From positions 1 through 49,353 of the forward strand of contig CAIVOO010000080.1 of NCBI GenBank assembly GCA_903907555.1: 49,353 bases of DNA. The letters run 5' to 3'. Shown here in pieces: positions 1 through 4,538 of this stretch; position 1 is the first letter of the stretch, and each line of letters opens with the position of its first letter. Position numbers and translations under genes: made by a program. Origin of the DNA: an uncultured archaeon. GTDB lineage: Archaea > Nanobdellota > Nanobdellia > Woesearchaeales > CAIVOO01. The notes under the pieces were generated by a model, which saw only the letters and a program-made list of their open reading frames with translations, searched no databases and was not told the DNA's origin.

Positions 1-104
1 AGCTAATCATGGGGCGGGCCTCTTGGCTGGATAACTTCAGTGGCAGCTCTCTCTTCGATGCTGATTACCGTAGCATAAACAACTTTAACCGTCTTCGTGG
101 GGTA
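1..104 (+). repeat. DGR variable region (VR), possibly truncated by the window edge
   Basis: Aligns without gaps to 457-560 (offset 456) with 89/104 identical. All 15 mismatches lie at adenines of the 457-560 copy (10 A>G, 4 A>T, 1 A>C). The first non-A mismatch is at 105/561. Confidence 0.9.
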
Positions 105-275
105 CGTAGTGCGAGCGAAGCGAGCGTAGAAGCGCAAGTTGCGCCGAAGGCGCAGGACGCAAAAAAATTAGTGCATCCAGCTCTAGATGATGTTTTGGCA
201 TGCTTAGGAGATGACGTAGCTCCTTCAGTGCGTCCAAAAGTTGAAGAGAGAATACGAAAGCTATATAACATTTAA
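1..275 (+). CDS. DGR target (variable) protein, C-terminal fragment; the gene starts upstream of the window
   Basis: Frame 3 is open from the window edge to TAA 273-275, so the ATG at 9 is internal. GRASWLDNFSGSSLFDADYRSINNFNRLRG is the diversified copy of the Asn-rich TR-encoded peptide. The G-x-SW ... R-x-RG layout resembles lectin/FGE-fold DGR variable regions. Confidence 0.8.
   Translation, partial: LIMGRASWLDNFSGSSLFDADYRSINNFNRLRGVRSASEASVEAQVAPKAQDAKKLVHPALDDVLACLGDDVAPSVRPKVEERIRKLYNI
132..153 (+). promoter_or_regulatory. GC-rich stem-loops just 3' of VR (candidate DGR target-site hairpin)
   Basis: gcgcc-gaa-ggcgc (141-153) overlaps the alternative gcgc-aagtt-gcgc (132-144). Both lie in a conspicuously GC-rich block (105-160) that is absent from the TR copy. 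Confidence 0.45.
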
Positions 276-456
276 TTTTTATCTTCTTTTTTGTCTCAGA
301 GCTCCTAGTGGAGTAGTCTGGACTACATGCTCTTTTGCCATGGTTGAGGCGACTCGGCTATAAAACCTTTAATCTGGACAAGTTCTAGGTTGATAATTAC
401 AGCTGTGACAGAAAGCCTTCGAGTTTTCCTGAAACAGCGGTGCATGAGGCAATAAG

Positions 457-560
457 AGCTAATCATGGGGCGGGCCTCTTGGCTGAATAACTTCAATAAC
501 AACTCTAACTTCAATGCTAATAACCGTAACATAAACAACAATAACCGTCTTCGTGGAATA
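457..560 (+). repeat. DGR template region (TR)
   Basis: This is the adenine-rich invariant copy (37 A in 104 nt). In the VR frame it reads NNFNNNSNFNANNRNINNNN, i.e. AAY codons. It ends 28 nt before the RT ATG. Confidence 0.9.
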
Positions 561-587
561 GCCCAGGCTTTGAGATATTATAATCTC

Positions 588-1661
588 ATGGCAGCTTACA
601 GGAATTTGTGGAATGAATTGTGCAGCAGCCAGAATCTAGAGTTGGCTTTCAGGAAAGCCAGAAAGCATAAAACACTAAAAAAGTATGTGATAGATTTTGA
701 AGCGAATTTGCATGATAACCTTTCTATATTGAGAGCAGAGCTTCTGCTGCATTCATACAGTCCTAAACCTCTGGAAACTTTTATACTGCGAGATCCGAAA
801 ACCAGAAAGATAAGCAAATCAGACTTTAGGGACAGGGTTGTGCATCATGCTTTATGCAATATTCTTGAGCCTATTCTGGAAAAAGGTTTTATTTATGATT
901 CTTACGCCAACAGGATAGGTAAAGGTGCATTCAAGGCAGTGGACAGGTTTAAATTATTCTCTAAAAAAGTTTCGAGAAATAATTCTAGAAATGCCTTTGT
1001 ACTGAAAGCAGACATCAGGCATTATTTTGATACAGTAGACCACAAGATACTTCTAAGCATACTGAAAAAGAGAATTAAGGACAAAAACCTGTTGTGGCTT
1101 ATTAGAAAGATATTAAGCAATCATTCTGCAGAGAAAGGCATGCCTTTAGGCAATCTTACTTCCCAATTCTTTGCTAATGTGTATCTTAATGAACTAGACC
1201 AATTTGTAAAACATAAACTAAAAGCGAAATATTATATCAGATATGTTGATGATTTCATCATAATGCACAGCTCTTATGAGGTCTTGGAAGAATGGAAATT
1301 AAAAATAGGATTTTTTCTAAACAATCACTTATTCTTGGAATTGCATCCAGATAAATCTAAGATTGTTACCATGCATCGAGGCATAGAATTTCTGGGGTTT
1401 AACATATTAACTAACCACTTATTGCTTAAGAGAAGAAATCTGAGAAAATTTCGCAGGAAACTTATAGAAATTTGTCGCCTTCATGAGCTAAATCAAATAA
1501 GTTATGACAAAGTTTACGATTTTATGGAAGGATGGTGCGCCTACGCCAAACACGCAGACACATACAACATGAGAAAAAATATCCTAAATTCCTTCGAAGA
1601 AAAATTCTCCCAAGAAATTTCGAGCAAAGAAATTAATAGGCTTGCAGCAATAAAAAGCTAA
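588..1661 (+). CDS. DGR-type reverse transcriptase
   Basis: PLGNLTSQFFANVYL (I/LGxxxSQ signature) and YIRYVDDFIIM (YxDD catalytic box). The track ORF starts at 465 only because the TR frame runs open into the RT. ATG 588 (MAAYRNLWNEL...) is the likelier start. Confidence 0.88.
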   Translation: MAAYRNLWNELCSSQNLELAFRKARKHKTLKKYVIDFEANLHDNLSILRAELLLHSYSPKPLETFILRDPKTRKISKSDFRDRVVHHALCNILEPILEKGFIYDSYANRIGKGAFKAVDRFKLFSKKVSRNNSRNAFVLKADIRHYFDTVDHKILLSILKKRIKDKNLLWLIRKILSNHSAEKGMPLGNLTSQFFANVYLNELDQFVKHKLKAKYYIRYVDDFIIMHSSYEVLEEWKLKIGFFLNNHLFLELHPDKSKIVTMHRGIEFLGFNILTNHLLLKRRNLRKFRRKLIEICRLHELNQISYDKVYDFMEGWCAYAKHADTYNMRKNILNSFEEKFSQEISSKEINRLAAIKS

Positions 1662-1730
1662 TAGAATATTGCTATTTAGCCAGCCTAATTCAAACCGTAT
1701 AAAGCTCTAATTCGAGGCTTATAGCCATTA

Positions 1731-1752
1731 TCAGCGGTATTTTTACCGCTGA
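1731..1752. terminator. Hairpin between convergent genes (candidate bidirectional terminator)
   Basis: tcagcggta-tttt-taccgctga forms a 9-bp perfect stem. It lies 70 nt after the RT stop and overlaps the stop codon of the minus-strand gene. Confidence 0.4.
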
Positions 1753-2906
1753 CTAACCGCTGAAAGCAATTCCAGAACCTTCTCTTGAGCTTTCTTAGCA
1801 GTCAAACAAAAGCTCTTCTGCCCATCAACAAAAGGCACATACCTTTTCAGGTTAGCTTTAGAGCTAACAAAAATCCACTTATCAAAATGCTCATTAAGCC
1901 AAGAAACTTTCGATACAACCTGCTCAGAATTATTGATACCAGACTCAATCTCAATAGCCAACTTCAAGTCATCTGATACGAAAGCAACATCAGCTCTCTT
2001 GCCCTCTAAGCTGTACTCTAATTTCATGTCTTTGTGCATTTCTTTAAACAAATGCTTCATAATGAAATGATGATTACTCTCACTCTTGCTATCCTTCTTT
2101 ACATAAAATCCACTATTGCTGACTTTTCCATTAAGCTCTATGCCACGAGCAAAAATAAACCCTTGATTAGTAGCACGAATTTTCATCTCATCATCCAACT
2201 CATTAGTCCTGTAAAAATCTCTTTTCAATTTCGGACCAGAATTATCCAATTCTCTAAACTTTTTCAGAGAAATTTTCCCATCTTCAACATCTTCTCTAAC
2301 TTTAGCATAGATGATTTCAGCATCCCACTGAAGCTCAGGCTTAGTATCTAAACTGTTAGTTTGATAATAAGCTATAGCCTCTTCTCTCAATCTCTTATAC
2401 CTCTTCTGGTCACTCATGTAGTCTTCAAATTTTTCTCTAGCCTTTCTATTAACTTCATAAGCGTATTTTTTATTTAGAGGCAAGGCTTTCTCAGACTTCT
2501 TAGATTTCTTAAATTCAAACAACTCATTAACTAGCCTATCCTCTTCTTCACGACGTAAAGTTTCAACACGCAACTTCTCCAATCTCCATCTTTCTTCTGA
2601 TTCGGCAAATTCACGCATTCTCTTAGCTTCATTATCTTTTCTAAAGCTTTCTTGTAGTTCTTTTTCTGCTTCTCTTTTCTCAGACTCTAGTTTCTGCTCC
2701 TCTTGATATCTTTTCTCAATATGCTCGTGGCGTTTCTTAATTAAGAACACTAAAGCCCAAACAAACAAGATTATTACCGCAACTACACACAACACAACAA
2801 AAACATTATACCAGCTAAAAGAGGCATTAATTTCGTCAGATTTCTTTAGATAAACTATGCCTGCAAGTACAACACCCACAATGATTAACTCCATTTCGTT
2901 TTGCAT
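1743..2906 (-). CDS. Membrane-anchored coiled-coil protein with a possible C-terminal PD-(D/E)xK-like nuclease fold
   Basis: Two N-terminal hydrophobic helices are followed by ~150 aa of E/K/R-rich heptad-like sequence. The C-terminus carries HHFIMKH...RADVAFV...LAIEIESG, reminiscent of restriction-endonuclease-like cores. The family was not recognised. Confidence 0.6.
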   Translation of the reverse strand: MQNEMELIIVGVVLAGIVYLKKSDEINASFSWYNVFVVLCVVAVIILFVWALVFLIKKRHEHIEKRYQEEQKLESEKREAEKELQESFRKDNEAKRMREFAESEERWRLEKLRVETLRREEEDRLVNELFEFKKSKKSEKALPLNKKYAYEVNRKAREKFEDYMSDQKRYKRLREEAIAYYQTNSLDTKPELQWDAEIIYAKVREDVEDGKISLKKFRELDNSGPKLKRDFYRTNELDDEMKIRATNQGFIFARGIELNGKVSNSGFYVKKDSKSESNHHFIMKHLFKEMHKDMKLEYSLEGKRADVAFVSDDLKLAIEIESGINNSEQVVSKVSWLNEHFDKWIFVSSKANLKRYVPFVDGQKSFCLTAKKAQEKVLELLSAVSQR

Positions 2907-2907
2907 T

Positions 2908-4119
2908 TTACACAGTGTGATTCAATCCAATACCCTTAAGTTTCTCCATCAAAAAAGCTTGAACCTCTTTATCCTGCATCAGCATGTTCATCATTTGGTC
3001 AGAGTTGGCTCTAAGTTTCTCTTGCTGCTCTTTTCTCTCTTCTAACTCCATAGCATACTTCAAATCCAATATTCCGCCGCATTTGCTGCAGTGCTTGAAT
3101 TCATTAGAGTTTATGGTATCACAGCGAGAACAAATTCTAGGCAGCAACTTGCTTTCATCTTTCTTCTCCTCGTTCTTTATGCCATTCATAGCTAGAACTG
3201 CGTCATCAACTTCCCTGCCGCTCATGTGAACATAAGTCGAGGGCATGTCGCTTCCTTGTATCCATCCGAAATATTGATTCATCTGAAACTCTGTCAGATG
3301 ATTAGCCATATATGTAGCTCTTGAGTGTCTGAATATGTGCGGATTGAATCTTTTCTTTATGCCAACTTTCTTGAATAGATTCTCTAAAAGTTTTCTAATA
3401 GCCCCATAACACATTACCTTATTATGGTTAGTTTGTCCTATGTTAACCCATAACGGAGAATTATTGTCTTCCCTGAATGGATGACTATTAATCCATGTAG
3501 AAAGGTATGGTGTGCTTGATATCATCCTAATCTTCCTAGAGCCAGTTTTTCCTTTAACTGATATTACAACCCCATATTTGTCAAAGCTAACATTTCTTAT
3601 GCACAGATTACCAATCTCGCTAACTCTAGCTCCAGACTCCCACAACACAGAAACAAAAGCCTTATCACGAGGATGGTCTGATAACCTCACAAGTTTTTGT
3701 ACGTCATCTTCTGTGAGCAGTTCTCCTTCGCTAGGAAGCCTTTTCTCGCACCTGCTTATACCTATATTAATCCATTTCACAATATCTGGATATTCTTCAG
3801 TACCTTTGATCCATTTGTAAAATCTTCTAATAATCACCTTATACCCTTGCTTAGTCCAAGGTGACAGATTGCTTTGCTGTATCTTGCTGATAAAACTCTT
3901 AACATCTTCTATAGAAGTTTCATCGAAATCTTTACTAATTCTTTCTGCAACTATTTTCAAAGTATTAAGGTACTTCACTAATCTGGGTTTTGATATATTC
4001 TCCAAAACTAGAGCTTCATTAAACCTAAGAATCAATTCTTTATTCTTAGCTGATATCTGAGCTCCACGTACCTGGTCCAAGGCGCTTTCATACTGTTTCT
4101 CATAATTATGGATATCCAT
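2908..4119 (-). CDS. Tyrosine recombinase/integrase (XerC/D-like) with a C-terminal zinc ribbon
   Basis: WESGARVSE (box I Arg), HIFRHSRATYMANH (HxxR) and STYVHM (catalytic Tyr region), plus CSRCDTINSNEFKHCSKCGG. It lies 77 nt from the 3' end of tRNA-Ser. Confidence 0.85.
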   Translation of the reverse strand: MDIHNYEKQYESALDQVRGAQISAKNKELILRFNEALVLENISKPRLVKYLNTLKIVAERISKDFDETSIEDVKSFISKIQQSNLSPWTKQGYKVIIRRFYKWIKGTEEYPDIVKWINIGISRCEKRLPSEGELLTEDDVQKLVRLSDHPRDKAFVSVLWESGARVSEIGNLCIRNVSFDKYGVVISVKGKTGSRKIRMISSTPYLSTWINSHPFREDNNSPLWVNIGQTNHNKVMCYGAIRKLLENLFKKVGIKKRFNPHIFRHSRATYMANHLTEFQMNQYFGWIQGSDMPSTYVHMSGREVDDAVLAMNGIKNEEKKDESKLLPRICSRCDTINSNEFKHCSKCGGILDLKYAMELEERKEQQEKLRANSDQMMNMLMQDKEVQAFLMEKLKGIGLNHTV

Positions 4120-4143
4120 AGACTTACCTCTTTAGAAACAGCA

Positions 4144-4155
4144 TTTATAAATTTT
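4144..4155 (-). promoter_or_regulatory. TATA-like box upstream of the integrase
   Basis: On the minus strand this reads AAAATTTATAAA about 30 nt upstream of the ATG (4119). A GAGGT motif lies 6 nt before the ATG. Confidence 0.35.
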
Positions 4156-4196
4156 GTAGCCCAAAAGGGCCTCCGGGCGTTGCGCCCGAAGTCCTA

Positions 4197-4324
4197 CGCC
4201 GTCACCCGGACTCTCTCACTAGCGTTCGGAGCATTATCGCCCTGGGCGCTAATATTTGAACCGGGATACCCTTGCGGGAATCGGTTTTCGAGACCGACGC
4301 AGTACCGGATTGTGCCATGACGGC
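4197..4324 (-). tRNA. tRNA-Ser(CGA) with a ~44-nt non-canonical intron in the T arm
   Basis: Acceptor GCCGTCA/TGACGGC, 3-bp D stem, anticodon stem TCGGT/ACCGA with loop CTCGAAA. Long variable arm CCC-GCAA-GGG. T stem CCCGG/CCGGG with TTCAAAT, followed by 44 extra nt before the 3' T-stem strand. Confidence 0.75.
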
Positions 4325-4378: not shown

Positions 4379-4393
4379 TAATGCTTCGGCCGG
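4379..4393. repeat. 15-nt direct repeat TAATGCTTCGGCCGG (copy 1; copy 2 at 4445-4459 overlaps the tRNA-Glu 3' end)
   Basis: The exact 15-mer occurs twice, 66 nt apart. The second copy covers the tRNA-Glu acceptor 3' strand plus 3 trailer nt. Confidence 0.8.
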
Positions 4394-4447
4394 CACGAGA
4401 AACCATTTCGAGATGGTTTCTGGGTCGTCCTTCGCATTACTTCGTAA

Positions 4448-4538
4448 TGCTTCGGCCGGGATTTGAACCCGGGTCGGAGCCTTTCTTCGCTTTATGCTCG
4501 AGAGGGCTCCATCCTTGGCCGGTCTAGACTACCGAAGC
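4448..4538 (-). tRNA. tRNA-Glu(CUC) with a 16-nt canonical (37/38) intron
   Basis: Acceptor GCTTCGG/CCGAAGC, anticodon stem GAGCC/GGCTC, loop CTCTCG-[AGCATAAAGCGAAGAA]-A, T arm CCGGG-TTCAAAT-CCCGG. Confidence 0.8.

Follow-up and report, generated by a model that had tools for sequence, protein, structure and literature searches.

The left end of contig CAIVOO010000080.1 from an uncultured Woesearchaeales archaeon, hereafter C80, encodes a diversity-generating retroelement (DGR), a tyrosine integrase, and tRNA-Ser(CGA). The present analysis concerns these genes and the small integrative island to which the first two probably belong. The window analysed is the entire contig, 49,353 nucleotides in length. 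Its source is a metagenome-assembled genome (MAG) of 1.175 Mb that consists of 159 contigs and is 98% complete. The public runs containing this stretch are freshwater sediment metagenomes, and a 157-kb public contig encodes an identical integrase together with an identical 387-aa protein. Throughout, G designates a genome, C a contig, and L a locus; G000 is the source MAG and L171 is G224:C3.

The features at the left end are sequentially arranged as follows.

1-104, plus strand: variable repeat (VR) of the DGR, truncated by the contig start, in the 3' part of the target gene
3-275, plus strand: 3' end of the DGR target gene (90 codons), a 5'-open reading frame whose remainder lies in an unassembled gap
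297-442, plus strand: structured RNA of the RT-11/RT-16 type, lying after the target stop codon (275) and before the template repeat
457-560, plus strand: template repeat (TR) of the DGR, which pairs with the VR
588-1661, plus strand: DGR reverse transcriptase (RT), matching RVT_1 (86 bits) and phrog_1423 (396 bits); 588 is the likely start
1743-2906, minus strand: open reading frame (ORF) for a 387-aa cargo protein with two N-terminal hydrophobic (transmembrane) helices and a K/E-rich, charged, coiled-coil-like stretch
2908-4119, minus strand: tyrosine integrase of 403 aa with a C-terminal zinc ribbon, matching Phage_integrase and SAM_4
4120-4194, minus strand: integrase-proximal island end, a spacer with a GC hairpin, conserved with a paralogous island on C135
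4195-4207, minus strand: proximal attachment (att) core, GGGTGACGGCGTA on the tRNA strand, comprising the T-stem end, the acceptor 3' strand, the discriminator, and 2 flanking nt
4197-4324, minus strand: tRNA-Ser(CGA), the proposed integration target, with an insertion of about 44 nt at 4210-4253

This layout had been read in the same way in the initial annotation, down to the membrane-anchored coiled-coil gene and the tRNA 77 nt from the integrase, and it is recovered here in full. The DNA to the right of the tRNA cluster was taken there for housekeeping sequence. Its gene order is common to three genomes of the same family. The element was also said to extend leftward beyond the window. Since the window is the entire contig, this can only mean past the end of C80.

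The DGR cassette

The VR and the TR (1-104 and 457-560) differ at 15 positions, and all 15 fall on adenines of the TR. Together with an RT of the DGR clade, this repeat pair identifies the cassette as a DGR. Another version of the VR, which differs at places 84, 85, and 87 and has a loose or divergent end at 53, is present in a contig of run X1. The RNA between the target gene and the TR matches the Rfam family RT-11 with 104.4 bits (E 5e-23), below the gathering score of 143.5, and RT-16 with 37 bits. At the equivalent position in three metagenome loci (L077, L080, and L089), RT-16 scores above its gathering score. The target fragment has no match in Pfam, and searches of PHROGs, NCBIfam, PADLOC, and PDB sequences returned nothing reliable for it. 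No accessory ORF of the Avd type is seen among the ORFs of C80. Homologs of the RT with 47-67% identity occur at 80 metagenome loci; the source genome itself is absent from the results of that scan.

The integrase and its family

The integrase is a member of the tyrosine recombinase superfamily, scoring 66.6 bits against PF00589 (cut-off 27.1), and it also matches phage integrase PHROGs. Its ORF is intact and retains the catalytic residues R165 (in the motif ARVSE), H261 and R264 (HIFRHSR), W286, and Y296 (TYVH), the catalytic lysine being assigned by position only (GKTGSRK). Two CxxC pairs, at residues 330 and 344, form the CxxC..CxxC tail.

The protein belongs to a family of about 1000 proteins of approximately 400 aa, and its homologs carry the source names Woesearchaeota or Nanoarchaeota. 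The family is distributed patchily, being present in 49 of the 301 genomes that make up the order-wide comparison set. In 33 of 50 integrase loci taken from species-representative genomes, a tRNA pointing the same way is found upstream at a distance below 300 nt, although these tRNA calls, made in the intron mode of ARAGORN, may be imprecise. The tRNAs targeted include those for Ser, Thr, Tyr, Asp, Glu, Met, His, and others; the homologs in G031 and L166 target tRNA-Glu. As in C80, the integrase lies directly beside the tRNA 3' end in C135, G028, G031, G021, G224, G280, and G303.

The target tRNA and the proximal attachment site

The start codon of the integrase is separated from the 3' end of tRNA-Ser(CGA) by exactly 77 nt (4120-4196). 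The tRNA is called neither by ARAGORN nor by Rfam at the gathering score because of the insertion of about 44 nt, which is located between the T-loop and the 3' strand of the T-stem, 2 nt from the att core. The molecule is otherwise intact, with a cloverleaf, a CGA anticodon, and a long variable arm. The insertion forms an 8-bp hairpin of its own, and its minimum free energy fold contains a 3x3 internal loop. A canonical bulge-helix-bulge motif is not established from this fold. The insertion is probably a non-canonical intron. The orthologous tRNAs of G004, G224, and G021 contain no such insertion, and in G303 the tRNA is interrupted at the canonical position by a 91-nt intron.

The 13-nt core has counterparts elsewhere. 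A repeat in the same register is found in G028, G031, G224, G021, G280, G303, L166, and C90.

The source MAG contains a second integrase of this type, on C135 (1-2364), which is 83% identical to the first and likewise lies 77 nt from a tRNA, tRNA-Ser(GCT). From the integrase start to the tRNA 3' end, spacer included, C80 and C135 are homologous. The cargo on C135 comprises a GmrSD-type nuclease and a protein weakly resembling NikA-like ribbon-helix-helix proteins. C135 and C90 share an identical sequence that begins 34 nt upstream of the tRNA and takes in all of it, and they diverge right after its last base. Because the two contigs part exactly at the tRNA 3' end, they represent two alleles of the tRNA-Ser(GCT) locus in the sample. 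In place of the integrase island, C90 (5133-7052) contains a 1.8-kb integrase-less islet, which encodes a winged helix-turn-helix (wHTH)-MNT/HEPN pair between 13-nt repeats of the tRNA end.

The distal attachment site

In a scan of the MAG with the 3' region of tRNA-Ser(CGA), GGGTGACGGCGTA occurs as an exact 13-mer at one place outside C80, namely C144:27671-27683. The copy corresponds to the last 11 nt of the tRNA plus 2 flanking nt, and lies 1.6 kb from the right end of C144. It is oriented as the proximal copy, so the right end of C144 would face the left end of C80. To its left lie the host genes for a 138-aa protein and CDC48. In G005 and G002, both genes stand near the same tRNA-Lys/Glu cluster, at a distance of 4-5 kb, with order and orientation unchanged. 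On the island side, C144 encodes a DUF6036 nucleotidyltransferase (NTase) of 236 aa and an overlapping gene product of 206 aa, for which no reliable match came from Pfam, PHROGs, NCBIfam, PADLOC, or PDB sequences.

A related island in G303 links these genes to the integrase. This 11.9-kb island begins at tRNA-Ser(CGA) with an integrase 63% identical to that of C80, continues with cargo genes, and ends with genes for proteins of 208 and 213 aa. The last two are 59% identical to the C144 pair and share its order and strand. About 80 nt after the NTase stop codon, 14 nt of the tRNA 3' end are repeated; the equivalent distance in C144 is about 95 nt. As the 13-mer alone is weak, the case for a distal att site rests on synteny and on the G303 homolog. 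The distal repeat of the tRNA-Ser 3' portion, which the initial annotation expected on an extended contig, is thereby located beside syntenic host genes, with the same geometry in G303.

No att-like copy with up to three mismatches is present in C80:1-4190 or between C144:27684 and the contig end. No smaller island that excludes the DGR is therefore suggested, and the island is read as C144:27684-29281, a gap, and C80:1-4194, with the DGR inside. We infer the physical join of C144 and C80 across this gap from the arrangement of the two sequences. An ORF starts 8 nt before the end of C144 on the strand of the target gene, so the gap may, at a guess, hold little beyond that gene. No other contig overlaps the C144 end or shares the C90 flank. 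Upstream of its wHTH-MNT gene, C90 has a promoter region that shares 82% identity over 66 nt with the one at the C144 end.

A site empty of the island is found in G004, a genome of the same family. There, tRNA-Ser(CGA) occupies the syntenic place and is followed by TatD, with neither integrase nor DGR. TatD, the neighbour of this tRNA cluster in relatives, was considered as a marker of the other island end and rejected: in G000 it lies on C157/C119, followed by L10e and the Lhr helicase, which are not island DNA. With the G004 site and the patchy occurrence of the integrase, the gene order is not conserved across relatives, as an acquired element would predict.

The locus thus combines an integrase beside a tRNA 3' end, a far-boundary repeat with host genes beyond it, and an empty site in a relative. 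We conclude, with a probability of roughly 85%, that this is a small cryptic integrative island that carries the DGR as cargo and was inserted by its own tyrosine integrase at the 3' end of tRNA-Ser(CGA). Integration would proceed by site-specific recombination in the core of about 13 bp that the island shares with the tRNA 3' end. The core would regenerate the tRNA, and the integrase gene would remain intact, as in lambda and in pNOB8-like ("type II") integration. In the proposed order, the C144 host genes (from CDC48 to an NTase) are followed by the distal att site at C144:27671-27683, the DUF6036 NTase with its 206-aa partner, and a gap that would contain most of the target gene. The VR, the RT-11-type RNA, the TR, the RT, the 387-aa protein, the integrase, the att core, and tRNA-Ser(CGA) would then complete the island and its junction. 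The wHTH/DUF6036 NTase pair is likely toxin-antitoxin-like and would stabilise the island, and the DGR would diversify the target protein, most of which would be encoded in the gap.

The 387-aa cargo protein

The protein encoded between the RT and the integrase is rare, with only five homologs among 5.8 billion clusters. Nothing reliable was found for it in Pfam, PHROGs, NCBIfam, PADLOC, or PDB sequence searches. Its C-terminal part of about 170 aa resembles standalone Nanobdellota proteins. Structure matches in the Atlas (TM 0.54-0.73) relate this domain to CoiA_nuc and to a terminal domain of archaeal VirB4/HerA ATPases. As a lead, the modelled domain is predicted to adopt a CoiA-like nuclease fold of the PD-(D/E)xK type, and the protein may act on DNA at the membrane.

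Related islands and their cargo

The association of a DGR with this integrase recurs. Among the 80 metagenome RT loci, an integrase of the family lies 1-1.5 kb from the RT in L077, L080, and L089, and a tRNA stands beside two of them; conversely, a DGR RT is present in L118 and L133 among the integrase loci. In the 301 genomes, the RT clade is found in 55. The two genes lie within 5 kb of each other in five genomes (G000, G021, G206, G224, and G280), forming six pairs. About 0.26 pairs would be expected by chance (estimated from about 33 pairs x 10 kb per 1.3 Mb), an enrichment calculated over related genomes that are not all independent, G224 and G280 being congeners.

Five islands in other genomes, the first three with a DGR and the last two without, have the following make-up.

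G224, at tRNA-Ser(CGA): 11.7 kb, 11-nt repeat; integrase, RT, three to four paralogous targets, and an AAA_5 ATPase
G021, at tRNA-Ser(CGA): 6 kb, repeat matching at 14 of 15 nt; integrase, split RT, target, and HEPN plus wHTH-MNT
G280, at tRNA-Glu(TTC): 9.9 kb, 13-nt repeat; DGR, with a second integrase directly after the repeat (tandem islands)
G031: 7.2 kb; restriction-modification cargo of the SacI type
G028: 11.2 kb; HNH endonuclease, Cas4-like nuclease, and TrbC/VirB2-like pilin

L166 is a further island without a DGR, and the cargo in G303 consists of secreted proteins. A repeat search over 10-kb flanks found the distal copy in 2 of 33 integrase loci, which suggests that many islands exceed 10 kb or are decayed, or that tRNA ends were mis-called in the ARAGORN intron mode. 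The att repeat was not found in L077 or L080.

In a quick tree of the integrases, those linked to DGRs are scattered, forcing at least six changes, and the integrases from the DGR islands in G224 and G280 group with that of the restriction-modification island in G031. Cargo therefore appears to be exchanged among closely related backbones. These islands probably form a modular family in DPANN archaea of the Woesearchaeota type. Their conserved ends are the integrase and, in the nearest kin, the wHTH/NTase pair. The exchangeable cargo between them includes a DGR with its target operon, restriction-modification systems, GmrSD, and secreted proteins.

The cargo operons of G224 (L171, 7920-13597) and L077 (1047-5735) are alike. 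Each encodes an AAA_5 (MoxR-like) ATPase, a protein of about 580 aa, and several targets; the paralogous targets are about 260-285 aa long and begin with MNYKIPDSF. We take this operon to be reminiscent of NTP-dependent conflict systems diversified by DGRs.

At least nine genomes from different families encode the DGR-type RT in two neighbouring ORFs, with the break always at query residue ~180. The second ORF begins with MPLGNLTSQFF. Examples are G021:C18:18431-19512, G134:C23:10993-12056, G217:C13:32896-33958, G082:C18, G110:C65, G125:C6, G155:C1, G280:C29, and G085:C185. The split could stem from an RT naturally made in two pieces, from recoding at this point, or from parallel decay.

Several MAG contigs end at or within about 1 kb of a DGR RT or VR, as C80 does (L118, L133, G206:C10, G174:C10, and G286:C15/C20). 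DGR repeats and VR variation break assemblies, and islands are consequently split across contigs.

Alternative explanations

The alternative that survives best, though we regard it as improbable, is a DGR that belongs to the ordinary chromosomal genes and stands beside an unrelated and possibly dead integrase remnant, with the C144 13-mer a product of chance. Most DGRs of the clade are indeed not linked to an integrase: about 70 of the roughly 75 RT-clade loci in the order do not lie beside one of this family, and the DGR of G028 is 148 kb away from its integrase. The composition of the element is also unremarkable, with no anomaly in GC content. Chance 12- to 13-mers do occur. A 13-mer is weak in a 1.17-Mb genome, and one other tRNA has a distant 13-mer match, probably fortuitous. 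Genome-wide 12-mers of tRNA ends proved mostly to be chance matches or duplicate contigs and were left out of the evidence.

All these points weigh against an island, as do three that concern its continuity and activity. The join between C144 and C80 is unsequenced. The read evidence comprises Logan contigs of 200-500 nt at 2-5x from four runs; these did not bridge the contig start and are too shallow to test the join. The gap could contain an extra att copy, as in tandem islands. Neither an excised circle nor an empty tRNA-Ser(CGA) site was seen in these low-depth contigs.

A purely chromosomal DGR is nevertheless difficult to reconcile with the adjacency of RT and integrase, in the same arrangement, in at least ten loci, three of which have the DGR inside att repeats. 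Nor would it account for G303, in which the C144 genes are linked to this type of integrase with an att copy at the same spot. The integrase has an uninterrupted ORF with all its catalytic residues, and nothing att-like lies between it and the DGR.

A second alternative is an integrated provirus whose structural genes lie in the gap and whose DGR diversifies a virion or host-recognition protein, like the DGRs of Bordetella phage BPP-1 or an ANME-1 virus. Archaeal viral DGRs exist, the gap between C144 and C80 is unseen, and the integrase has its matches among phage PHROGs. However, neither the visible 5.8 kb nor the annotated complete islands of G224, G021, G028, and G031 (6-12 kb) yielded a capsid, portal, terminase, or replication gene. 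The 2.9 million contigs of IMG/VR contain no relative of the integrase or the RT, whereas the same pattern scan gave 60 genome and 151 metagenome matches. The DGR cargo in G224 and L077 is, moreover, an AAA_5 ATPase operon of cellular type. A provirus is thus very improbable. The initial annotation had left a virus, a plasmid, and a genomic island side by side; the genomic island stands, and the virus and the plasmid are unsupported, as neither the visible parts nor five complete homologous islands showed capsid, portal, or replication genes and IMG/VR gave no relatives.

An integrative conjugative element (ICE) is not indicated either, as a module of type IV secretion system (T4SS), VirB4, coupling protein, or relaxase is absent from the visible parts. 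The annotated complete islands likewise yielded no T4SS module. The hints of conjugation are confined to the TrbC/VirB2-like pilin in G028, the weak NikA-like protein on C135, and the resemblance of the C-terminal domain of the 387-aa protein to one that also occurs fused to VirB4/HerA ATPases.

The idea that the integrase is the housekeeping XerA dimer resolvase of the genome, beside a tRNA by coincidence, is scarcely credible: its best NCBIfam match is the XerA model (NF040815) and the 98%-complete MAG shows no other XerA-like gene, but the match reaches only 113-114 bits against an equivalog cut-off of 220, the protein has 403 aa and a zinc ribbon instead of about 280 aa, and it exists in two copies, 83% identical, each 77 nt from a tRNA-Ser. 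In most genomes of the order, XerA is a different protein of about 280 aa with a score of 200-280 bits. G001, G002, and G005, of the same family as the source MAG, have a true XerA (203-241 bits) without the zinc-ribbon integrase, which itself occurs in 49 of the 301 genomes. That the integrase might be the XerA ortholog, an objection which the initial annotation raised against its own inference, is contradicted by these scores and by the separate XerA of its relatives. The PF00589 and NF040815 matches in G000 are the two island integrases only; its XerA ortholog was not found and is probably unassembled.

Neighbouring tRNAs

On C80, tRNA-Ser(CGA) is followed by tRNA-Glu(CUC), which has a canonical 16-nt intron, and by tRNA-Lys. 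One further feature lies among them.

4379-4393 and 4445-4459, minus strand: 15-nt direct repeat of the tRNA-Glu(CUC) 3' end (with 3 flanking nt), enclosing 51 nt with a perfect hairpin

From its sequence, the repeat pair is a probable scar of an earlier integration. Two other tRNAs are followed by similar local repeats: tRNA-Tyr at a distance of 73 nt (14 nt; C84:14588 and 14661) and tRNA-Pro at 95 nt (12 nt; C7:1415 and 1510).

Comparison with known elements

Cryptic integrated elements (CIEs) and other integrated mobile genetic elements that target tRNAs in archaea lack viral or conjugative signature genes, have toxin-antitoxin, restriction-modification, or nuclease cargo, and occur in tandem and decayed copies (Krupovic et al. 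2019, PMC6563490). In Thaumarchaeota, their att repeats are as short as 8 bp (median 17 bp) and most are smaller than 20 kb (PMC6563490). Archaeal integrases of the pNOB8 type ("type II") leave the integrase gene intact after integration (Badel et al. 2021, PMC8371274). The island described here resembles both in its intact integrase, 3'-distal tRNA target, short direct repeats, and small size. In the scheme of PMC6563490, it is a cryptic integrated element. It differs from them in its DPANN host, in a zinc-ribbon integrase that forms a large family of its own, and in its DGR cargo. The 2021 review PMC8371274 makes no mention of DPANN, Nanoarchaeota, or zinc.

Cellular, non-phage DGRs inside integrase-bearing, horizontally transferable islands have precedents in bacteria. 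ICEs of Bacteroides carry DGRs, and their excision and transfer have been shown (bioRxiv 10.1101/2024.11.15.621889). A genomic island of Legionella pneumophila Corby carries one as well, as cited in PMC5758913. Those elements are conjugative and tens of kilobases long, with demonstrated excision and transfer. The present island, in contrast, is archaeal and without a T4SS module, and its delimited relatives span 6-12 kb, far below the size of bacterial conjugative elements. It may still be mobile at the present day.

The DGR itself is akin to those of DPANN archaea, the candidate phyla radiation (CPR), and archaeal viruses (PMC5758913, PMC8144416) in its RT clade (47-67% identity, groundwater and sediment loci) and in adenine-only mutagenesis. 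It also shares with them the lack of an Avd-like ORF and the structured RNA upstream of the TR. The two surveys class DGRs as cellular or viral. The global one (PMC8144416) does not mention an integrase, and a mobile-element origin is only hypothesised. Unlike in these surveys, the DGR is here placed inside att-delimited islands. As far as we could find, these are the first att-delimited, integrase-borne DGR islands described for DPANN archaea.

Implications

DGRs are unusually common in DPANN and CPR, and their spread has so far been left as that of cellular elements, perhaps once on mobile elements. If DGRs ride integrase-bearing, transferable islands, this would account for their patchy distribution among relatives. 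DGR islands would be systematically split and missed in MAGs because DGR repeats and strain-variable islands break contigs there.

The analysis brings out a large integrase family, hitherto undescribed, whose core at the tRNA end is short. We tentatively propose, as a possibility that we rate somewhat below an even chance, that a still-active family of modular mini-islands, with a zinc-ribbon integrase, a tRNA-end core of about 13 bp and, in some members, a wHTH/NTase pair, shuttles cargo that includes complete DGR cassettes with their target operons, and so spreads DGRs through episymbiont lineages. On the same proposal, the frequent introns and insertions in the target tRNAs, which in C80 come within 2 nt of the core, may reflect an arms race over the integration site. 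A DPANN DGR is tied here to an att-delimited island, and the linkage recurs in several lineages, which provides a testable vehicle for the horizontal transfer of targeted hypermutation in archaea.

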